Shown here: in pieces, positions 3,029 to 53,305 of the stretch
Position numbering within the stretch: the first letter of the stretch is position 1
Layout of the letters: every line of letters starts with the position of its first letter
Source of the DNA: an uncultured Gammaproteobacteria bacterium
GTDB taxonomy: Bacteria > Patescibacteriota > Patescibacteriia > Veblenbacterales > UBA10138
Direction: 5' to 3'
Assembly: GCA_964453605.1 (NCBI GenBank)
Contig: CAYVOI010000001.1
Coordinates: 420,095 to 484,094, forward strand
DNA length: 64,000 bases
Notes under the pieces: generated by a model
The model's database searches: none
Told to the model about the DNA's origin: nothing
What the model saw: the letters and a program-made list of their open reading frames with translations, nothing else
Translations under genes and position numbers: made by a program

Positions 3029-3124
3029 GCTTCTCGACCTTGATTTATTTTGGTCTTGCGGGTAATCTTAAGTTCGCCCTTGCCCCTTGGTCATGGGCGA
3101 CTGTAGCACCAGTTCCACCCCCGA

Positions 3125-3202
3125 GGCCTCATCGTCTAGCCCGGTCCAGGACGTCTCCCTCTCACGGAGAAAACTGGGGTTCGAATCCCCATGAGGCTAC
3201 CA
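3125..3202 (+). tRNA. tRNA-Glu (anticodon CTC) with encoded CCA
   Basis: Cloverleaf folded by hand: acceptor ggcctca/tgaggct; D-stem gtct/ggac; anticodon stem tctcc/ggaga with loop ctCTCac (U33, A37); T-arm tgggg-TTCGAAT-cccca; discriminator A + CCA. D-arm resembles E. coli tRNA-Glu (tcgtctag...caggac). Confidence 0.85.
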
Positions 3203-4706
3203 ACGTTTCTTTTTGAGCAGGTAGCACTGGAATTAGGCCGAAAATAGGGCACGCTTCTGGGGTTTGAAATCCAGGGTAATTGTAGAAGACATTTTGCGGA
3301 AACAGAATCTTTCGCAAAACCTTTAAGTCAGCGGGGTCAAGAGCCTTCCACTCATGCGGAAGGTTTTTGATATATCCGAATGAGAAATCAATTGCCTTGC
3401 TGACATCCAGGCCATCGTAACCGCTATTGCTTCGGGACATCTGTAGCGCTCGTATCCTTTCCTCAAACTTACCTCGATGTTCCTTAAACTCTTCGTCAGA
3501 GATGAGGTCACCCTTGAGCTTCAGCTCTAGCAGACTGTCTCGTTGCTCACCCAACCTCTTGAGCTCGGTCTCGATCTTGGAGTTCTGTTTAGACACCTCC
3601 GCCAGCTCAGTCTCATAAGCGCAGGCTACGGCCTCTTTTAAAATATCGAGTGTGTCCTCCACTGGCACAAGTTGGGTCAAGAACCCTGTAAATTCGCCCT
3701 CAAAGTCATCCTTCGAAATCGAATGGCGCATTTCGCAGCCAACCTTGCCACAGTTGTAGTAGGCATAGCGTCTGCCAGTCTTGCCCCTTGTCCAACCGCC
3801 AGTTATGGAATGGCCGCAGGCACCGCACTTCACACCACGCAACGGGAAGTCGGGGTTGTTGAGGTTCCGAATGACTTTCTTCGGGTCGCCGCCGGTCAGT
3901 AAAAACTGCACCTTGTCGAACAGCTCCTTGCTCACGATCGGCTCATGCTTGCCTGGCACGCAAATGTCCCACTTAGGAACACTAATCCAACCGCAGTACA
4001 GTGGGTTGGTCAAAATCTTCACTAACAACTGGGGCGAAATGTCTAGACGGAGCGTCGGGTCGAGTTTCATGGCCTTTTGCGCCAGTTCCCGAAACGTATA
4101 AATGCCCTTGGCATACTCCTCAAAAATGAAACGCACAATAGGCTCGCGTTTCCGTTCAGGCACAATGACTTTGTTGTTAGCGGCATCTCTAGTATTAACG
4201 TAACCGAAGTTGGCCTTGAACGCCCAGTTACCAGCGTTCAGCGCTGTCCTCATTCCCTCGGCCGTTCGTTGCGCTCTAATGTTGTTATCGAACTGAGCCA
4301 TGGCAGATAAAATCCCTTCCATCAGTTGTCCCTGCGGGTCGCTTGCTATTGCCTCCGTGGCAGATAAAATTGTTACACCACACTTACGCAATATTACCTT
4401 TAGGGCATAGTGATCCTCCAGATTACGAGCGAAGCGGTCAAGCTTGTAGACGATCACGTTTCCCACCCTCCCCTGATTTTTACCGCAGTAGCGGAGCAAA
4501 TTTTGCAATTCGGTTCGGTCGGCTGTTTTTGCAGATTCACCCTCTTCCCTGAATAGCTTGAGTACTGCCAGCCCTTGCTTGTCGGCATAGGCTCGACAAA
4601 CCTTCTCTTGGCTTTCCAGGCTATAGCCATCAAGCTGATCCTTCGAGGAGACCCTGATGTAGATGACGGCTGTCAAAACTGGTTGGTTGCCTAATTTTGC
4701 TTTCAT
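3162..4706 (-). CDS. Large serine recombinase/integrase (resolvase catalytic domain, recombinase domain, zinc ribbon, coiled coil)
   Basis: N-terminal VIYIRVSSKDQ...SLESQ serine-recombinase catalytic motif; CGACGHS...YYNC zinc ribbon; 514 aa; the C-terminal ...GFEPQFSP is encoded by the reverse complement of the tRNA-Glu T-arm. Confidence 0.85.
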   Translation of the reverse strand: MKAKLGNQPVLTAVIYIRVSSKDQLDGYSLESQEKVCRAYADKQGLAVLKLFREEGESAKTADRTELQNLLRYCGKNQGRVGNVIVYKLDRFARNLEDHYALKVILRKCGVTILSATEAIASDPQGQLMEGILSAMAQFDNNIRAQRTAEGMRTALNAGNWAFKANFGYVNTRDAANNKVIVPERKREPIVRFIFEEYAKGIYTFRELAQKAMKLDPTLRLDISPQLLVKILTNPLYCGWISVPKWDICVPGKHEPIVSKELFDKVQFLLTGGDPKKVIRNLNNPDFPLRGVKCGACGHSITGGWTRGKTGRRYAYYNCGKVGCEMRHSISKDDFEGEFTGFLTQLVPVEDTLDILKEAVACAYETELAEVSKQNSKIETELKRLGEQRDSLLELKLKGDLISDEEFKEHRGKFEERIRALQMSRSNSGYDGLDVSKAIDFSFGYIKNLPHEWKALDPADLKVLRKILFPQNVFYNYPGFQTPEACPIFGLIPVLPAQKETLVASWGFEPQFSP

Positions 4707-4846
4707 AGGTTATGAATGATTAAGGTAAGCTTTGCTCGTTTGGTCAAGCTCGGCAAATTAGAGTCGCAAATCACCGAATGGGGTAATCGGCCACGAAACG
4801 GAGAATAACCACGCCTGGGCCAAATTTACATCCCTAGCGACCATCC

Positions 4847-5059
4847 TCATGGGGGGTTAGAGAGCTGGTCGAGGTAGGCAAGAATCTCAAATCGCTCCTG
4901 TTTGTCATAGTCGTCCTTATCCACCAACTTGTTGAACCAGTAATGAACCACGCGGCTGCTAAAGCGCTGTCCTGTAATGGCGGTGGAAAAACATAAGTAC
5001 GAGCTCCAGCCAGGACGCCTTGTAACTAATTGTTTGTACCTACGCTCTATAGATTTCAT
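4847..5059 (-). CDS. Small excisionase/AlpA-like HTH protein (possible recombination directionality factor)
   Basis: STAITGQRFSSRVVHYW matches the Xis/MerR-type HTH_17 pattern (A-x3-G-x3-S-x-V-x2-W); lies next to the recombinase. Confidence 0.4.
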   Translation of the reverse strand: MKSIERRYKQLVTRRPGWSSYLCFSTAITGQRFSSRVVHYWFNKLVDKDDYDKQERFEILAYLDQLSNPP

Positions 5060-5105
5060 ATGGGTTTAAATAAACACTGGGGATACAGGCTATTACAAGC
5101 AACCA

Positions 5106-5312
5106 CTATAACCCCTCTTTTTTAGGCCTTTCTAAAAATGCAACACCTTGGCCCCGTTCCTTAAGCCAACGACGGACGAGGAAATGGGCCAAATCAAAAA
5201 TTTGCTGCGCGAGCGCATCCAACTCATCGTCGGTCAAGGCAGAATACTTAGCCCTAAGCCACTCCGCTATAATTTGCGCTCTTCTTTCATTAAAAAGCTG
5301 ACCCCGTACCAT
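5106..5312 (-). CDS. Hypothetical small protein (island cargo)
   Basis: 68-aa ORF in an operon-like array with its neighbours; no recognisable motif. Confidence 0.35.
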   Translation of the reverse strand: MVRGQLFNERRAQIIAEWLRAKYSALTDDELDALAQQIFDLAHFLVRRWLKERGQGVAFLERPKKEGL

Positions 5313-5351
5313 GGAGTCAGCATAAAATATGAGTAAACTAGTAAGATGACC

Positions 5352-6158
5352 TTATTTTCCTATATTCCTTCGCCTCATCCTTTCGCGTTGTTTTCTCAGG
5401 CGCATAAGCGCTTTCCTATCCATCGGGTCATTAGGATCTTGTGGCATATATTCAGCGACTAGACTAAGGTCATTTTCTTGTTCCAAGCGCTGCTCTACAA
5501 CTTCCATCACTTTACCTTTTTTAACGACGGCAGCCACGTTGGCACTACTCCTTAACCTCCGAACTTTGTTCACACCACAGCTGATAACTAGCTTTTGAAA
5601 GGCATCCCAAACTTCTTTTTTGAGCTTCGGCACTCTGCCCCTAAACCGAATACCAAAGGCATGACGGAATTCGGCCAGGGCGTACTCCTTATCTTCAGTT
5701 GAGAGAGGAATTTCGTCCAGGTTGCCAGCAATCAACAGCAGGTTTCCCAAGAATGTGGTCGGCAACATTGTACTTAGCACAGGCACGCGGTACACCAGAG
5801 CCGCGGTGTAATTTTCTATTAAAGTTAACGGGAGTTCAAATTTTCGCAGCTCTTCCACCACATCAGCCAATAGTGCGAAATCCTCCTGCTGAGATAATGA
5901 GTGAAACCAGGGTGAGCTATTGTACAAATTTATATCATTGTCCTCAGTGAATTCATAAAAATCTTCCTCAGGCTTCAGGCGAGGAATATGGTGACGTTTC
6001 CTCAGCTTTACCAAGGAAGCTTCCATAGCTCCGGTCTCATTAAGCAGAGGCAGACGGCTTTCAGAGATAGCATACTGTGAACTCACGTAATGCTCAGATA
6101 CCAGCTTGAAGGACATTTGTATCGCTTCGGCGATGGGCGAGGGATTGCTATCTTCCAT
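5352..6158 (-). CDS. Hypothetical protein (island cargo), basic C-terminus
   Basis: 268-aa ORF; a TATAAT box sits ~9 nt upstream of the ATG on the minus strand, so the transcript may be leaderless; no known motif. Confidence 0.5.
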   Translation of the reverse strand: MEDSNPSPIAEAIQMSFKLVSEHYVSSQYAISESRLPLLNETGAMEASLVKLRKRHHIPRLKPEEDFYEFTEDNDINLYNSSPWFHSLSQQEDFALLADVVEELRKFELPLTLIENYTAALVYRVPVLSTMLPTTFLGNLLLIAGNLDEIPLSTEDKEYALAEFRHAFGIRFRGRVPKLKKEVWDAFQKLVISCGVNKVRRLRSSANVAAVVKKGKVMEVVEQRLEQENDLSLVAEYMPQDPNDPMDRKALMRLRKQRERMRRRNIGK

Positions 6159-6252
6159 ATGACTTAATTATAGCGAAAAATGTTGATTTATGTTAATTTA
6201 ATGATACAACTTAATGGCCTAAACTTGGTATTTGCCAGGCATGGCTAAAAGA

Positions 6253-6332
6253 CCCAATGACGATACTGAGCTCTACGTTCAGCAACTCGTCATTGGGCCA
6301 TATCCCGAAAGGGGTATGGGGTTCGAAAGAAC
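6253..6332 (+). other. Structured intergenic element: an 11-bp inverted repeat followed by two adjacent GNRA-tetraloop hairpins
   Basis: cccaatgacga...tcgtcattggg; catatccc-GAAA-ggggtatg; ggttc-GAAA-gaacc. Confidence 0.4.
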
Positions 6333-6407
6333 CTAGCTGGCGTAGGGCTTTGTGTTTTGCCAAGAACCAACTCCAAAATTTCTTTTGTTTTACCTTAAAC
6401 CAAAATT

Positions 6408-6881
6408 ATGAACGCCGCCGAAGAAATTGTGAAATACTGGTATGAACAGCAAGGTTATTTTTGCATGGAATCAATTAAGGTTGGGCGAAGAGAAATCGAC
6501 CTGCTTGCCATAAAGTTAAAAGAGAAAGACAACTCGATTCAGGAGGCGGTTCACGTGGAGGTACAAGTTTCAATCAACTATACAAATTTTAAAGAGACTG
6601 TGAAGCAGATAGCGACCCGCTACGACGGCAAGTTTAACGATAAAAAGGTTCAGGCCTACATCCAGCGACTCATCGGCAAGAGTTACCATAAGATCGAGGT
6701 TAGGGGCAAAATGGCACTGAAAGGCAAGGACATAAGACCTGAATATATAAAATTACGAAAGCGCTCAGGAATCACTGTCATCCCATTTGAAAAAATATTC
6801 AACGAAGTAACACAAAAAATGGGCACCGATCATCAACTCAACCCAATAATCCAGGCCGTGCAGCTAGCCAAGTATCAATAA
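6408..6881 (+). CDS. Hypothetical protein, possibly a PD-(D/E)xK nuclease fold
   Basis: REIDLLAIK ... VHVEVQVS resembles the D...ExK core (Q in place of K); conserved N-terminal Glu; 157 aa. Confidence 0.35.
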   Translation: MNAAEEIVKYWYEQQGYFCMESIKVGRREIDLLAIKLKEKDNSIQEAVHVEVQVSINYTNFKETVKQIATRYDGKFNDKKVQAYIQRLIGKSYHKIEVRGKMALKGKDIRPEYIKLRKRSGITVIPFEKIFNEVTQKMGTDHQLNPIIQAVQLAKYQ

Positions 6882-7082
6882 TAACCACACGCCAGTACTT
6901 ATGTCTCAAACCAAGCTTCCCCGTCACACAGTATACTTTTTCACCATTACGAGCTTTATTCACTCGGATATACCGACCTCTACAACACCTGCCCGCTATA
7001 TAAACTAGGTCATATAGAATAAATCTTTTGTAAACTTACCGCTTTTTAAATTAACTTATAAAAAAGAATTTTATTTTTTAAG

Positions 7083-7110
7083 AAAAATGGCTTATTTTAG
7101 CCATTTTTTT
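7083..7110. terminator. AT-rich hairpin terminator (bidirectional)
   Basis: aaaaatggct-tatttt-agccattttt followed by a T-run. Confidence 0.5.
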
Positions 7111-7175
7111 ATATTTATAACATTCTATAAAACTTAAATAATGTATGTCTAAGAATAGAAATTTTATAAATCCCC

Positions 7176-7204
7176 TTGACAGGCCTTTATAGATTGCCTA
7201 AAAT
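7176..7204 (+). promoter_or_regulatory. Near-consensus sigma70-type promoter upstream of the 7237 ORF
   Basis: TTGACA, 17-bp spacer, TAAAAT. Confidence 0.55.
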
Positions 7205-7236
7205 GATACTGTCTTACAACTTAATCTCATAACTTT

Positions 7237-8037
7237 ATGGGGCTCAGTGACTTAATTGTTGACCAAAGGCAAATCAGCGAAGAAATGATTGAAAACCTAC
7301 TCAAAGGAAATGTTGAGCTAATTAAAGAGGACAGCGGGGTCAGGTTAATGCCCGCAGTTTCAAAATTCACTGCTGCTACCAAAGTCCTCCTCATCTTGGC
7401 AGCTAAAAAGGCTTGGGAAATGATATCGAAAACTCCACACCCAACTACTGCCTCAGAAATTGAAGGTGCCACTGGGCTACCGCTAAACACAATTTACCCA
7501 GTAATGAAAAAATTTAACGACGACCGTTTGGCAATATCGAGCAAAGGGAAGTACAGCATAACAAATAGGGGCATCCTCCAGCTACCCGCTCTAATTGATG
7601 CGGACAAAAATCGCAGTCACACAAATAAGACGAGTAATACGGCTGGCAAAGTGACTCGCAACCGCCCCAGTGGGCGCCCAGATATAATTAAAGCAATTAA
7701 GGAACACCACATGGAGCCTCAATACGTTGAAACCATCCTACCTATTCTGGAAAAGTCCAGGCACAGTGATAAATACTTATTAGCTATCTACATCGCAAAA
7801 GATAAAATGGCAATAGATGGACTAACCTCTAGTGAGATTCAATACTTACTTAACGAGGCCCCGCTCAAATTGCCGAAATTGTACTCTTCAAATATTAGTC
7901 GCGATCTACCAAAGCTCAGGAATTTTACCACACCATATCCAGCTGGAAGTTCCTACGAATACCGCCTTACATCATTGGGAGAGAGGCGCGTCAAAGAGTT
8001 AATCGAAGGTGGAAGTACCAACGTACATCAAGCATAA
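7237..8037 (+). CDS. Hypothetical protein with two winged-helix-like DNA-binding segments
   Basis: ASEIEGATGLPLNTIYPVMKKF...ISSKGKYSITNRG and LTSSEIQYLLNEAPLKL...YRLTSLGERRV look like wHTH units; ends 6 nt before the next ORF. Confidence 0.45.
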   Translation: MGLSDLIVDQRQISEEMIENLLKGNVELIKEDSGVRLMPAVSKFTAATKVLLILAAKKAWEMISKTPHPTTASEIEGATGLPLNTIYPVMKKFNDDRLAISSKGKYSITNRGILQLPALIDADKNRSHTNKTSNTAGKVTRNRPSGRPDIIKAIKEHHMEPQYVETILPILEKSRHSDKYLLAIYIAKDKMAIDGLTSSEIQYLLNEAPLKLPKLYSSNISRDLPKLRNFTTPYPAGSSYEYRLTSLGERRVKELIEGGSTNVHQA

Positions 8038-8043
8038 TTCTAT

Positions 8044-8745
8044 ATGCCAGACTTTATTCAAGATACAGAAGCTCTCATCTCTAACCTATCTCAAAGGTCG
8101 GGAAAAGAAATTTCCGAAAAAGCCTTACTAACACAGGCTCGGGCTTGGGTTAAAAATTATAGCCACACACTCGATACTGTTTTTAGTGGCCCAAACGACC
8201 TCGATAAACTCCACTACATCGGCCGTACTGTCCATAACCAACGTTTAGATAAAAGTAGCTGGCTAAAAAAATTAAAAGCACTTAAAAAGAAAATGGAAAT
8301 ATTAGAGCAAACAAAAGAATCCTCACTGGGTATCTGGTCGTTCGATCCTAATAAACCGTTTACCGCCTACCAGACCCTACGAGAATTTTTTGCTAATGCA
8401 CAAAACAGGGTACTGATTTATGATGGTTACGTTGAGGAAAAAACCCTAGAAATATTAGGTTCATTGCCTAAATCTGCATCAATAAGAATTTTAACAAATA
8501 ATACATATGGAAACTTTACAAGAGAGTTGAGGCTATTTGAAAAAGAACACTCTATAGAGGTTAAAAAATTATCAACCGTGCATGATAGGTTTTTTATAAT
8601 TGATGGAAAATGTTACTTATCAGGGACATCTCTACACTCCCTTGGAGGGCAAAAATCATCCACCCTATGCTCCGTGGATAGTCATATAATGCAAATTTTC
8701 GAAAAACGATTTGAACAAGATTGGGCTCCCGCTACTAAAGTCTAG
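8044..8745 (+). CDS. Hypothetical protein with a phospholipase-D/HKD-like variant motif (putative nuclease or phosphodiesterase fold)
   Basis: VHDRFFIIDGKCYLSGTSL fits H-x-(K/R)-x4-D-x6-G-(S/T), the PLD superfamily signature with K replaced by R; one copy, implying a dimeric Nuc/BfiI-like arrangement. Confidence 0.4.
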   Translation: MPDFIQDTEALISNLSQRSGKEISEKALLTQARAWVKNYSHTLDTVFSGPNDLDKLHYIGRTVHNQRLDKSSWLKKLKALKKKMEILEQTKESSLGIWSFDPNKPFTAYQTLREFFANAQNRVLIYDGYVEEKTLEILGSLPKSASIRILTNNTYGNFTRELRLFEKEHSIEVKKLSTVHDRFFIIDGKCYLSGTSLHSLGGQKSSTLCSVDSHIMQIFEKRFEQDWAPATKV

Positions 8746-8913
8746 TTTGATAAACCGAAAGGGAGTAACCCAAAACGGCGATAAGAACGAACCCTGGGGC
8801 TTTGCGGTGAAATATTTACAGTATTTCCAAACTGAAAAAGTCTAGAAATTAACTCAATCAACGGTTTTGTATTTTTTCGACATAGGGCTACCACTTCAGT
8901 AGTTTTCTTCTGC

Positions 8914-8930
8914 GGGGTCACGGTGACCCC
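8914..8930. repeat. GC-rich palindrome ggggtcac-g-gtgacccc
   Basis: 8-bp inverted repeat with a 1-nt centre, in an intergenic region. Confidence 0.6.
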
Positions 8931-9006
8931 CTGGGCGGACAAATCCCGATAGTGGTACCAAAAGGGATAAAATTCAAACTACTCTATATTAGGGTAGTTT
9001 TTATGC

Positions 9007-9035
9007 TTGACACGGTTAGCATGATAGCTTAAGAT
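9007..9035 (+). promoter_or_regulatory. Candidate sigma70-type promoter for the 9091/9290 ORFs
   Basis: TTGACA, 17-bp spacer, TAAGAT. Confidence 0.35.
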
Positions 9036-9090
9036 TGGGCTGATTAAAAACGTCGTTCCTTTCCATCAACTATTATAGAGGAGTTTAATT

Positions 9091-9264
9091 ATGGACAAAC
9101 TAGATCTCTCGGCAGAGGGTAGAAAAATTTTTGAAGATGCCCTGAACGAGGCGTACGAGGCCGGGTTTCAAAACGCCACGTTCACCATGGGTTCGGTTCA
9201 TGAACTCGCAACCTCACAGGAAGATGAGGTAAAAAAAATCGTTGATGAATTCGTCAGTATATAA
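9091..9264 (+). CDS. Small hypothetical protein (57 aa), absent from the ORF track because it is under 60 aa
   Basis: GGAG RBS 7 nt upstream of the ATG; MDKLDLSAEGRKIFEDALNEAYEAGF... Confidence 0.45.
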   Translation: MDKLDLSAEGRKIFEDALNEAYEAGFQNATFTMGSVHELATSQEDEVKKIVDEFVSI

Positions 9265-9289
9265 CCAACGTCATTTCTGGAGAAGGCTC

Positions 9290-9505
9290 ATGGATATCCC
9301 TAAGGACAAAAGTTACCCAGCTGATTCGGTGCAGTGCAACGGCTGTGGTGGGCATGGTTGCACCACCTGCAACAACAAGGGCTGGCTTACACCCAGCAAC
9401 CATCCAAAGGGCCGTAGGTGCGAACGGGAAGGTTGTGGCAACCCAATTCCACCAAGCCAGGTAGCGATCTACTGCACTAACGAGTGCGCAGCGTTGGACG
9501 CCTGA
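9290..9505 (+). CDS. Cys-rich zinc-finger/ribbon-like small protein; start placed at the internal ATG that has a strong RBS
   Basis: GGAGAAGG RBS before ATG 9290; CNGCGGHGCTTC...C..C..C cysteine clusters. Confidence 0.45.
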   Translation: MDIPKDKSYPADSVQCNGCGGHGCTTCNNKGWLTPSNHPKGRRCEREGCGNPIPPSQVAIYCTNECAALDA

Positions 9506-9639
9506 ACACAACCCTCTTCTTCTACCAAAATGGTAGGGGAAGAGGGTATTTATTTTGGCTGGTAGCTTACGCGGTAGATAGGGCCAGCTTTGTCGTCCGA
9601 AATGTAGATAGCACCGCCGGGCTCAGCACGTATAGCACA

Positions 9640-9666
9640 CAGCGGCCACCTGGGTGGTGGCCGCTG
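9640..9666. terminator. GC-rich hairpin (10-bp stem) between convergent genes
   Basis: cagcggccac-ctgggtg-gtggccgctg followed by gttgttggg. Confidence 0.45.
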
Positions 9667-9682
9667 TGAGTTGTTGGGCTAA

Positions 9683-11677
9683 CTAGTCGTCGTGCTTGCC
9701 GTTGCCCTTACCTTCTGACTTGTCGTGGTTCCCCTGGCTGTCTTGGTTACTGAGGCCCTGGGTACCAGACTTGCCATGTTCGTTATCGTTTTCACCCTGG
9801 CCCTGTCCGTTCTCTGACTTGTGCCCCTGCGGTTTAGCTGAAACCGTTAAGCCAGTGAGCGATTGCAAGCTGATGATGTTCTTGAACTTTTTACCCTTGG
9901 CGTGCCCGACTGCCCTGCCCTTAAACACCTTGAGGTTACAGTTAGCAGCGAGGTACACCGTGGTAGAGCCAGTTACCTGGTACAGGCGACCGTTGATAAG
10001 GCCGTTGGCACACACCTTACCCTGACGGTTCTCGTTCTCGCCTGAGAAGCTACCGGTTATCGCATGGCTGCCGGTGGCGTTGTTACCAGCTGCATCTTTA
10101 ATGACTGAGCCAGCCATAGTTACCGTGTCACCAACTGTTACCGTAGGCAGGGAAGTGCCGGCTGACAGGGTAATGGTGAGCATGGTGCCGCCGAGGTCCC
10201 AGGCCGCGCTGCCAATGTGTCCAGCGCCATCGAGCCAGCTGTGGCTGTTATTTAGCATGAGAGTTGAGTTGATGTTACTGTCCGTAATAGTGGGCTTGTT
10301 GGTAGCCTCACCAAAGGTGAGCACCACGCTGTCACCAGCTTCTGTAGCGTTCGTGCCGCCAGTGTTCTGGGCTACTGCGCTTGTAAGCACCGGGCCAGTA
10401 GTGTCAGTGGTAGTGAAGGTGCCGGTGATAGCGCTGCTGCCTGTGGCGCTGTTGCCACTCGCATCCTGCACCACTGAACCAGCCATAGTTACGGTGTCAC
10501 CCACAGCTACGGTAGGAACAGAGGTTGCACCGCTCAGTGTGATGGTAATGATAGTGCCAGCCGCATTCCATACCGCTGAACCAATATGGCCAGCCCCATC
10601 GAGCCAGCTGTGGCTGTTGTTCAAGGTGAAGGTAGTGTTGATGTTGCTGTCGGTAATAGCAGGCTTGTTGGTAGCCTCGTTAAACGTTACTGCTACGCTG
10701 TCGCCCGCTTCCTTGGCAATGGTACCGCCAGTGTTAGCTGCTACCGCGCTCGTGAGCACTGGGCCGGTGACATCACTGGTGAAGCTGCCGGTGATAGCCA
10801 TGCTGCCGCTAGCGCTGTTACCAGAGCCGTCGGTAATAACGCTGCCCATAACCGTTACGGTGTCGCCGGGCTCCACCGTAGGTAGGCTACCGTTGCCGCT
10901 TAGCGTGATGGTGTAAGCAGTACCAGCGGCGTTCCAGCTCGCTGACATGAGCACACCCAAGCCGTCGAGGAACGAGTGTCCGCTGGAGAGACCAAACACA
11001 CTCGGCAGGCTTCCAACTGTTATGACTGGTTTGTTGGTAGCTTCATTGAACGTCAACACCACGCTGTCACCAGCTTCCTTAGCACTGGTGCCGCCAGTGT
11101 TCATGGCTACAGCGCTCGTAAGGTGTGGGCCAGTAGTGTCGGCCGTGATCATGGCTGTGGTAACCGCCGTAGTGGTTGGAGAGTTGGCAGAGGTGACAAT
11201 GGCGTCGGTGGCGAGCTGGGCCGTGAAACCGTCAGCCGTGGCAGTGTCGCTCCAGGTTGAGCCGGTGGCCACCGTCACAAAGAACGTGGCACCAGTACCA
11301 ATGGTGTTGTTGCTGCCCGTGGTAATAGTCGTAGCTGAATCGACGTTCACCGTGCTCTGCGAACCAGCCAGCAAGTCTGAGCCGGCGTTAAAGCTGCCAT
11401 CGCCGTTGTCTTTATATACGGCGACCGAGGCGAGGTCAGAGCCTGCCAGCGTACTGCCGCTCACCTTGGTGAGGGTGACGTTGACACTAGAGAGCGTTTC
11501 ACCAGCGTCTTGTCCCAAAGAAAACTTAAACAGCGCCAGAGGAGCACTTGAGGCGGGTGCGACCTGTGGCGAGGTAACCAGGGAAACTGGTCCGGTGGTA
11601 ACCGTGACCGTGGCGTTGGCTACTGGCACAAACAGCGCCAGCTGCAACAGCGCCACCAGAGATGAAAATTTCTTCAT
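9683..11677 (-). CDS. Secreted or cell-surface protein with three tandem ~120-aa repeat domains and a Gly/Gln/Lys/His-rich C-terminal tail
   Basis: Signal peptide MKKFSSLVALLQLALFVPVANA; three repeats beginning TGPVLTSAVA.NTGGT...; the reverse-strand ORFs the track lists inside it are artefacts. Confidence 0.7.
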   Translation of the reverse strand: MKKFSSLVALLQLALFVPVANATVTVTTGPVSLVTSPQVAPASSAPLALFKFSLGQDAGETLSSVNVTLTKVSGSTLAGSDLASVAVYKDNGDGSFNAGSDLLAGSQSTVNVDSATTITTGSNNTIGTGATFFVTVATGSTWSDTATADGFTAQLATDAIVTSANSPTTTAVTTAMITADTTGPHLTSAVAMNTGGTSAKEAGDSVVLTFNEATNKPVITVGSLPSVFGLSSGHSFLDGLGVLMSASWNAAGTAYTITLSGNGSLPTVEPGDTVTVMGSVITDGSGNSASGSMAITGSFTSDVTGPVLTSAVAANTGGTIAKEAGDSVAVTFNEATNKPAITDSNINTTFTLNNSHSWLDGAGHIGSAVWNAAGTIITITLSGATSVPTVAVGDTVTMAGSVVQDASGNSATGSSAITGTFTTTDTTGPVLTSAVAQNTGGTNATEAGDSVVLTFGEATNKPTITDSNINSTLMLNNSHSWLDGAGHIGSAAWDLGGTMLTITLSAGTSLPTVTVGDTVTMAGSVIKDAAGNNATGSHAITGSFSGENENRQGKVCANGLINGRLYQVTGSTTVYLAANCNLKVFKGRAVGHAKGKKFKNIISLQSLTGLTVSAKPQGHKSENGQGQGENDNEHGKSGTQGLSNQDSQGNHDKSEGKGNGKHDD
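10034..11122 (-). repeat. Three tandem ~360-bp coding repeats inside the surface protein gene
   Basis: The protein-level repeats at aa 186-305, 306-427 and 428-548 map to these coordinates. Confidence 0.7.
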
Positions 11678-52856: not shown

Positions 52857-53305
52857 TAGTGCTAAGCACACCTGATAAGCCGAATTCTGTATCCCGCCGA
52901 TGGCGGGACGGCGATTATCTATCTAGGCTCTACCTTGCGGTAGAGCTCAAGCTACCAACCCGACCGTAAAACTCACTTGTGGTGAGCCACGGCCCTATTT
53001 GGTATTGCACCGGGTAGAGTTTACCTAGCCGCCTGTGTCACCACAGACGCTGGTGGGCTTTTACGTTACTTCGCCGAAGCGAGTTATCCCGCGTAAGCGG
53101 GCCCACCGTTTCACCCCTTACCCGCCAGCTGGCGGGCGGGACTGTTCTCTGTTGTACTTGTCCTGCGGCGTGCCTTGCGGCAGCCAACGGCTCCTGTTAG
53201 GAGCTACCCCTCCCTATGCCTGGGAGCAGCGTGGTGTTCGGACTTTCCTCCCCGTAAAATCCCTTACGGGATCACGGGGCAATCGCCTAGGTGTACCTAG
53301 CTTGA
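52857..53305 (-). ncRNA. rnpB: RNase P RNA, bacterial type A (ends approximate)
   Basis: Minus-strand transcript contains GGAGGAAAGUCCGAAC (P4), GUAAGGGGUGAAACGGUGGG, GGUAAACUCUACCCGGUGCAAUACCAAAUAGGG and ACAGAAUUCGGCUUAUCAGGUG, aligning block by block with E. coli M1 RNA; a P1 helix is present. Confidence 0.9.

Follow-up and report, generated by a model that had tools for sequence, protein, structure and literature searches.

A winged-helix gene and a PLD-like gene on a mobile island: a possible minimal form of a modular conflict system

What would two small genes, one for a protein that looks made to bind DNA and one for a protein with a phospholipase D (PLD)-like domain, be doing side by side on a mobile island, and are they a pair at all or simply neighbors? 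The question is raised by a 64,000-nucleotide stretch of DNA (which we call the window) from an uncultured bacterium that GTDB places in the Patescibacteriota (GenBank assembly GCA_964453605.1, contig CAYVOI010000001.1, positions 420,095 to 484,094), in which gene A is followed, after a gap of six nucleotides (8038-8043, ttctat), by gene B. Our answer, to which we give a probability of roughly 55%, is that A and B are the smallest, two-gene form of a modular conflict module, whether anti-phage or addictive, that is found mainly in uncultured bacteria and, where a lineage is named, in Patescibacteria. We read the pair in this way, with B as its effector, because B carries a catalytic-looking site, because in relatives its PLD-like domain is swapped for an RNase-type domain, and because the relatives lie in restriction-modification (RM) loci of three types and on recombinase islands.

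The two proteins and their operon

Protein B was modeled by AlphaFold with high confidence (mean pLDDT, the predicted local distance difference test, of 91, on an alignment of 26 homologues) as a four-helix N-terminal domain joined to an alpha/beta domain. When the model was compared with the PDB by Foldseek, the best matches were TrmBL2 (5bpi, E 1.9e-8), NucT (1.9e-6), Zucchini (2.4e-6), and Nuc (1e-5), with further matches to the nuclease domain of SauUSI, PLD3/4, poxvirus F13, and bacterial phospholipase D; the Foldseek probability was 1.0 for NucT, Nuc, Zucchini, PLD3/4, and TrmBL2. At the level of fold, B belongs to the PLD superfamily. The Pfam profile PLDc_2 aligns with B over positions 2-132 of its 132 (E = 7.3e-4), and it was matched at E <= 1e-3 by 26 of 100 distant relatives of B. 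The helical domain, which matched no Pfam family, is a putative adaptor or regulatory domain.

Within the PLD-like domain lies the segment VHDRFFIIDGKCYLSGTSL (residues 179-197), with the pattern H-x-R-x4-D-x6-G-T-S; H180 is encoded at 8581-8583, R182 at 8587-8589, and their conserved partner D127 at 8422-8424. In all 100 of the distant relatives, which are only about 20-30% identical to B, H180, D181, R182, and G194 are invariant, and D127, S196, and W227 are nearly so; the 26 full-length homologues share H180, D181, R182, F184, G194, S196, L197, H198, G201, and K204 without exception. Such constancy in H180, D181, R182, and G194, and very nearly in D127 and S196, argues for a functional site. 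In the model D127 is in or just after the strand 122-130, and the H-D-R of residues 180-182 stands directly ahead of the strand 183-186. That is the arrangement that marks the HDR, or MIT_C-like, clade of PLD domains, in which D or E follows strand 2 and HDR precedes strand 5 (PMC12065111).

Must a site so well kept cut anything? TrmB and TrmBL2 combine a winged helix with a PLD-like domain in one chain, and they regulate by binding DNA and catalyze nothing. A and B might, in other words, be a TrmB-like regulator or chromatin protein split into two chains, with an HDR pocket that binds a small ligand. A is of the DNA-binding type, TrmBL2 is the best fold match, TrmB is matched as well (3qph, 2f5t), and TrmBL2 is also the best match in the PDB to the single sequence of B (E 0.39), with a weak match to its NCBIfam model besides. 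That last match reaches 13.4 bits against a cut-off of 530, however, and B has no winged helix of its own, so that we rejected membership of the TrmB family; the superposition on TrmBL2 as a whole is poor (root-mean-square deviation 17 Å, TM 0.4), and the TrmBL2 alignment has no H-D-R, whereas HDR, D127, and S196 are conserved across the 100 relatives. The relatives, moreover, lie in RM loci and islands rather than beside metabolic operons, and elsewhere the N-terminal domain of B is fused to an RNase-type HEPN domain in place of the PLD-like one. We consider a split regulator improbable.

The sequence profile of the 100 relatives raises another thought, for its best match among solved structures is MITD1 (2ymb, E 9e-4), with the H-D-R aligned, and two of the 100 match Pfam MIT_C. 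Might the HDR domain act on membranes or lipids, as the C-terminal domain of MITD1 does, making B a membrane-directed effector or a nonenzymatic anchor? The presence of poxvirus F13 and bacterial phospholipase D among the fold matches would suit this idea. The model of B has no predicted membrane segment, however; the closest of the small single-motif PLD folds are nucleases (NucT, Nuc, Zucchini, and the SauUSI domain), the domain is exchanged for an RNase-type HEPN, and published analyses favor a nuclease effector (PMC12065111, PMC12839542). Nothing about B or its surroundings speaks for such a role, and we would be quite surprised to find B working on membranes.

What of A? Its model (pLDDT 85, 25 homologues) has winged-helix units at about residues 46-108 and 176-244, each followed by a long helix, which divide the protein into an N-terminal unit (residues 1-129), a disordered basic linker (129-143), and a C-terminal unit (144-266). 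Foldseek found local matches only, to the MarR family, AspA, Sso10a, TubR, and the tandem winged helices of an RNA polymerase III subunit, and the sequence libraries gave a single weak match, to HVO_A0261_N. A tandem winged-helix protein is supported at the level of fold, and most likely A would bind DNA.

The two genes appear, from the DNA around them, to form a self-contained unit, since a promoter-like site and terminator-like hairpins flank them (Table 1). The promoter-like site matches the consensus at 11 of 12 positions, lies 32 nucleotides 5' of A, and scores highest of all such sites within 6300-9700; shuffled versions of that region gave 6.8 +/- 2.3 weaker promoter-like sites. The related locus L007 (L-numbers here label the loci of relatives) has TTGACA-17-TAAACT in the equivalent position. 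Past the hairpin that follows B there is a further promoter-like site, at 9007-9035. The spacing of the two genes suggests that their translation would be coupled; no obvious Shine-Dalgarno sequence precedes the start codon of either.

An earlier note, made from the letters of this stretch alone, had already picked out much of this, and it has fared well. The two reading frames and their six-nucleotide gap are as it gave them, and its TTGACA-17-TAAAAT promoter is there as a match to the consensus. The two winged helix-turn-helix units that it saw in A are borne out by the model and the local Foldseek matches. Its single-motif, Nuc-type PLD fold with lysine replaced by arginine agrees with the model, with Foldseek, and with the motif, and, given a PLD model and four residues invariant in 100 relatives, the motif is not a chance match in some other fold.

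Relatives, restriction loci, and exchanged effectors

If A and B belong together, then they should keep company elsewhere, and they do. Out of 5.8 billion clusters, word-indexed searches picked up 26 with A and another 26 with B (the latter at 90% identity). All of the 11 distinct B loci that came with upstream sequence have between one and three small accessory-family genes ahead of B, tightly spaced or overlapping, with spacings that run from a 1-nucleotide gap to overlaps of 11 and 20 nucleotides, and 9 of the 11 have the N-terminal unit of A. How these genes are put together varies a good deal. A is followed directly by B in the window and in L007, which comes from a Saccharibacteria metagenome-assembled genome (MAG) and whose A and B are each 41% identical to those of the window. 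One or two extra genes for proteins of about 120-160 residues come between them in L001, L003, and L008; the N-terminal unit of A is a separate gene of 128-139 residues in L005 and L017 (hhalign probability 99.4%) and is fused to another small unit in L013 and L018; L006 and L016 lack the A unit and have three other small genes instead. The MAGs that carry names are Giovannonibacteria, Saccharibacteria, and Parcubacteria, plus one labeled Actinobacteria. Comparison of the window with these loci by tblastx gave one housekeeping match and no other. The operon varies from two to four genes, and the A-B pair is its smallest form.

Six of the 11 B loci (L001, L003, L005, L006, L008, and L016) adjoin or sit within RM systems or beside a FokI-like gene, as set out in Table 1. 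A large serine recombinase is present in the window, L007, L006, and L016, complete in all except L016, where the contig ends, and it adjoins tRNA genes in the first three.

Effectors are also exchanged among the relatives. Among the proteins found in an exhaustive profile search with B were some that share only its N-terminal 95 residues. In two of these, P0117 and P0149, the B-type domain leads into Ymh/HEPN (PF09509), whose R-N-x-K-A-H motif is intact, at the end of an operon that runs N-terminal unit of A, gene of 139-143 residues, gene of 120 residues, effector, and that lies between hsdM and hsdS. In other loci the place of B behind an A-family gene is taken by a third family, whose members are about 250 residues long and have an R-x4-6-H-like motif, IRNHRGVGH being one example; two of these are type I RM loci (L024, L026), one is a type III locus (L025), and in one the setting is next to a tRNA gene (L020). 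The one member scanned against Pfam had no match, and the family may be an unrecognized HEPN-like effector. In L019, A is followed by yet another protein, of 245 residues.

How might such a pair work? What we infer concerns the nuclease activity, its substrate, the dimerization, the contact between A and B, and the trigger, and it would run as follows. B would be the effector. Nucleases with a single PLD motif, such as Nuc, BfiI, and Zucchini, act as dimers, and since B too has one motif per chain, its HDR-clade domain would be expected to dimerize in the same way, so that H180, R182, and D127 of two subunits might come together in a single phosphodiesterase site for cutting nucleic acid. The N-terminal helical domain could be the adaptor that couples this effector to its partner proteins. 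A would repress the operon from its strong promoter, or hold or target B through that adaptor, or do both, and B would stay inactive until A is disturbed, whether by infection or by the loss of the island.

Several things weigh against this picture. Arginine stands in B where the canonical HKD motif (H-x-K-x4-D-x6-G-S-x-N) has lysine, so that HxK...GSxN is not found there, and the PLDc_2 score of 19.8 bits is under the gathering threshold of 27. The best fold match, TrmBL2, is a nonenzymatic chromatin protein. The nearest match by sequence with a solved structure, MITD1, has a PLD-like domain known for binding membranes, for which enzymatic activity is a hypothesis only (PMC12065111). The promoter and terminators of the operon are consensus matches only. 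RM genes adjoin the pair in neither the window nor L007. And A accompanies unrelated downstream partners, which makes it unlikely to be an antitoxin specific to B; a general sensor or regulator is favored over a strictly cognate antitoxin.

One may go further than a two-gene module and imagine that A-type proteins and the small accessory proteins together make up an unnamed multigene defence system, mostly of Patescibacteria where a lineage is named, in which a DNA-binding scaffold senses infection or the failure of a neighboring restriction system and releases an effector that may be HDR-PLD, Ymh/HEPN, or the third family; the window would then hold its minimal self-sufficient form. Profile comparison linked the C-terminal unit of A to a family of 180 residues (70% probability) and, convincingly, a family of 120 residues to one of 115, yet among all the small accessory families just two or three convincing links emerged, which falls short of a common origin for all of the units. 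We hold this larger idea tentatively, as one that could well be wrong.

The island and its other features

The pair lies in a region (about 4000-9700) where GC content is 40-47%, against about 55% elsewhere in the window. The integration end of the island is a tRNA gene overlapped by a large serine recombinase (domains Resolvase, Recombinase, and Zn_ribbon_recom). The 3' end of the recombinase reading frame overlaps the 3' end of tRNA-Glu(CTC) by about 40 nucleotides, and L007 has a matching overlap (1373-1444 and 1414-2883). No direct repeats of note were found at the island ends, and no long repeat at the far end; serine recombinases require just a very short core, so that the missing repeats tell us little. 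Among the island reading frames scanned with Pfam and PADLOC (3100-9700), there was no methyltransferase and no other recognized defence gene, and we therefore rejected the idea that the pair is part of a classical RM system.

Could the pair, then, serve the island and nothing else? A pure addiction module, with B as toxin and A as a labile, autoregulating DNA-binding antitoxin, would stabilize the serine-recombinase island without any part in phage defence. The layout is that of type II toxin-antitoxin systems (two small adjacent genes, one of them for a DNA-binding protein), with the winged-helix gene first, tight spacing, and a single strong promoter-like site, and in both the window and L007 a small island integrated at a tRNA gene carries the pair as its main cargo, with no RM genes beside it. 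Most relatives, however, are embedded in RM loci and are not stand-alone cargo, A is paired with at least three unrelated downstream families, as fits a general sensor or regulator better, and protection against phage was seen with a PDC-S05 representative, which has the effector domain found in B (PMC12881386). We regard addiction alone as unlikely, while addiction remains a serious alternative or complement to the conflict module that we prefer. The two roles are not mutually exclusive, and since the pair is stand-alone island cargo in the window and L007, phage defence and island addiction are both plausible.

In regard to this setting the earlier note was right in part and too generous in part. 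Its mobile island is there in the low GC, the tRNA-Glu, and the recombinase; no methyltransferase turned up; and the pairing that it called unfamiliar recurs in several distinct loci. Its two-gene module holds as a conserved pair, but that pair is the smallest form of a larger operon, and A is not specific to the PLD-like protein. Its candidate for a novel defence or island-maintenance system gains from the company of the relatives (type I, IIG, and III RM loci and serine-recombinase islands), but the enzyme domain is not novel, given its match to PDC-S05 (E = 2e-21) and its place in the HDR/MIT_C-like clade.

Other features of the window deserve a word. Between the recombinase and the pair, in both islands, is a LOOT RNA (Rfam RF03000, gathering score 46.4), at 6216-6334 (+) with 87.5 bits in the window and at 5932-6049 (+) with 66.6 bits in L007; L006, though it also carries a recombinase, had no match. 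This suggests that the orphan LOOT motif belongs to this type of mobile element. Just 5' of the operon, a reading frame of 157 residues (6408-6881, +) resembles UPF0102/YraN weakly (E 0.17), and its D...E-x-Q pattern would suit a PD-(D/E)xK nuclease; we rejected it as a third component, since it ends in a terminator-like hairpin of its own and none of the relatives has a counterpart. At the island edge a 664-residue protein rich in Thr, Ser, Ala, and Gly (9683-11677, -), with a signal-like N terminus, internal repeats of roughly 120 residues ("TGPVLTSAVA.NTGGT..KEAGDSV..TF.EATNKP"), and no Pfam match, is probably a surface-layer or cell-wall protein. Farther off, at 52860-53298 (-), lies a bacterial class A RNase P RNA (219.9 bits), an ordinary housekeeping feature.

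Table 1. Features of the operon and island in the window, and the settings of related loci (positions in the lower rows are those of the locus named)
Feature	Position	Strand	Description
Gene A	7237..8037	+	266 residues; predicted tandem winged-helix protein (reading-frame listing and model)
Gene B	8044..8745	+	233 residues; stop codon included (reading-frame listing)
B, N-terminal four-helix domain	8044..8316	+	Residues 1-91; helices 2-16, 26-46, 50-62, 70-91 (AlphaFold model)
B, C-terminal PLD-fold domain	8332..8745	+	Residues 97-233, alpha/beta; HDR (MIT_C-like) clade
Active-site-like segment	8581..8637	+	H180-D181-R182-x4-D187-x6-G194-T-S196-L-H198
Sigma-70-like promoter	7176..7204	+	TTGACA 7176-7181, 17-nucleotide spacer, TAAAAT 7199-7204; consensus match only
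Terminator-like hairpin	7081..7110	+	Ends upstream gene of 157 residues; 5' boundary of operon
Terminator-like hairpin	8976..9000	+	3' of B; probable transcript end
Island integration end	3125..4706		tRNA-Glu(CTC) 3125-3199 (+) overlapped by large serine recombinase 3162..4706 (-)
Loci L003, L004, L012			hsdR-hsdM-[A][119 residues][B]-hsdS; type I RM
Locus L001			Type IIG MmeI-like enzyme directly upstream
Loci L006, L016			HSDR_N-N6_Mtase enzyme upstream, type IIG-like; L016 adds specificity subunit
Locus L006			Serine recombinase beside tRNA genes
Locus L008			Type III mod and res genes
Locus L005			HARE-HTH/FokI-like gene
Locus L017			IS200-type transposase
Locus L007			tRNA, opposite-strand serine recombinase, LOOT RNA, then A and B; repeats window layout
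Third-family gene, L020	8827-9594
Third-family gene, L024	6110-6859
Third-family gene, L025	7103-7897
Third-family gene, L026	5421-6176

Known systems and what the pair would add

How much of this is new? The fold, the lysine-to-arginine variant, the association with defence, and the logic of embedding are all already known, from the literature or from PADLOC. As far as our searches show, the N-terminal adaptor of B, the constant partnership with the A family and its small satellite proteins, and the three-way exchange of effectors have not been described. If we are right, PDC-S05, which has so far been treated as a single gene, would gain a multigene, effector-swapping architecture, and that architecture would extend to small-genome uncultured lineages (the Patescibacteria), for which we found little defence literature. 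To our knowledge, no member of the HDR clade has a demonstrated activity. The pair would offer a compact two-gene test case for a nuclease activity that has so far been proposed for Menshen NsnC variants, for about a third of BrxL proteins, and for MITD1, and also for how winged-helix partners control such effectors; should the multigene defence system prove real, it would be a tractable handle on whether the HDR PLD clade, to which human MITD1 and many BrxL proteins belong, is catalytic. In practical terms the value is modest, this being one candidate among hundreds that have come from guilt-by-embedding.

Of the known families, the single-motif PLD nucleases are the simplest to compare. B has the fold and domain size of Nuc, NucT, Zucchini, and the nuclease domains of BfiI and SauUSI, with one motif per chain and Foldseek TM values, normalized to the target, of 0.5-0.68; it differs in its motif (HxR...GxSxH versus HxK...GSxN), in its extra N-terminal helical domain, and in having no signal peptide. 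TrmB and TrmBL2, for all their likeness in overall fold and in joining a winged helix to a PLD-like domain, do so in one chain and without the HKD/HDR site, whereas here the domains lie in separate proteins and strict conservation marks the site.

Within the HDR clade, the PB-PLD1 site of Menshen NsnC resembles MIT_C of MITD1, and an HDR-type site is present in many BrxL proteins (PMC12065111); a survey of BREX found a lysine-to-arginine "HRD" variant in 1030 BrxL proteins (PMC12839542), the same replacement that we see in B, and both analyses read the clade as nuclease effectors. Unlike those proteins, B has no NsnA/NsnB, BREX, or MIT-domain partners at the window locus. Membership of Menshen (NsnABC), DISARM (DrmC), or Mokosh (MkoC) was rejected, with NsnA/NsnB, DrmA/DrmB, and the MkoA/MkoB helicase all unmatched among the island reading frames scanned, and with Pfam and PADLOC finding nothing in the neighbors; MkoC matched B only at E 0.0085, and the NsnC model was matched by 15 of the 100 relatives but not by B. 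Viruses too carry the HDR-PLD domain, for haloarchaeal tailed viruses (HRTV-16, HRTV-9, and HJTV-3; MZ334506.1, MZ334505.1, and MZ334515.1) encode a hypothetical protein that tblastn matched to residues 109-227 of B at about 30% identity, in the PLD domain alone; no full-length relatives of B were found in a scan of viral contigs or in PHROGs.

The Abi-type proteins described by Anantharaman et al. (2013, PMC3710099), in which a variable N-terminal domain is joined to a HEPN, HKD, or TIR effector and Ymh genes occur in RM operons, have the same plan as B, a variable N-terminal domain with a swappable C-terminal effector and genes in RM operons, and they differ in that small accompanying genes are absent from those descriptions. 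All 100 of the distant relatives match PDC-S05 (best E 4e-42); among them there are also matches to NsnC, MkoC, or DrmC, and proteins with AbiTii, TIR, integrase, or methyltransferase parts. The exhaustive search with B found 2903 representative clusters at E <= 1e-3 and only 9 at E <= 1e-30, and from that difference we take full-length B to be rare and its C-terminal domain to be widespread.

PDC-S05 itself is among the closest relations. It was through guilt by embedding, in BREX, DISARM, and type I RM loci, that the PDC candidates were picked out (bioRxiv 10.1101/2024.01.29.577857), and T7 and T5 plated about 1000-fold less well on E. coli B with one PDC-S05 representative, annotated "Virulence_RhuM" (PMC12881386). 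The Virulence_RhuM Pfam family was matched by none of our 100 relatives, and the RefSeq label for the bona fide N-terminal domain is ORF6N, so that the two labels disagree. B matches the PADLOC models PDLC04879 and PDLC04869 significantly (E 2.3e-21 and 3.7e-21), over model positions 136-282 of 285. Proteins of 298 residues on Treponema and Legionella plasmids, found by tblastn with B and called ORF6N domain-containing, match PDC-S05 from end to end (E 1e-119 and 1e-112; positions 9-297 of 306), and they match the separate N-domain models PDLC04856 and PDLC04849 as well. With these bona fide members B aligns in the PLD-like half alone, where HDR, D127, G194, and S196 are conserved.

The setting is shared too. 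On Treponema saccharophilum pTS1 (L028, 1-10330), the genes run hsdR, ATP-binding protein, hsdM, winged-helix gene, PDC-S05 (ORF6N plus HDR-PLD), hsdS, Fic, HNH endonuclease, and P-loop NTPase, which by its gene content is a dense embedded defence locus. PDC-S05 is embedded there between hsdM and hsdS, just as B is in L003, and the gene directly before it encodes a winged-helix protein of 89 residues. What sets B apart is that canonical PDC-S05 is defined as a single gene with an ORF6N-type N-terminal domain and a PLD-like C-terminal domain (about 285-306 residues in all), whereas B has an unrelated four-helix domain in the first position and always comes after one to three genes from the accessory families that include A. 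Judged by its sequence, B shares the effector domain of PDC-S05 without being a full member, and the A-B module is most likely a minimal, previously undescribed form within the known defence and addiction modules.

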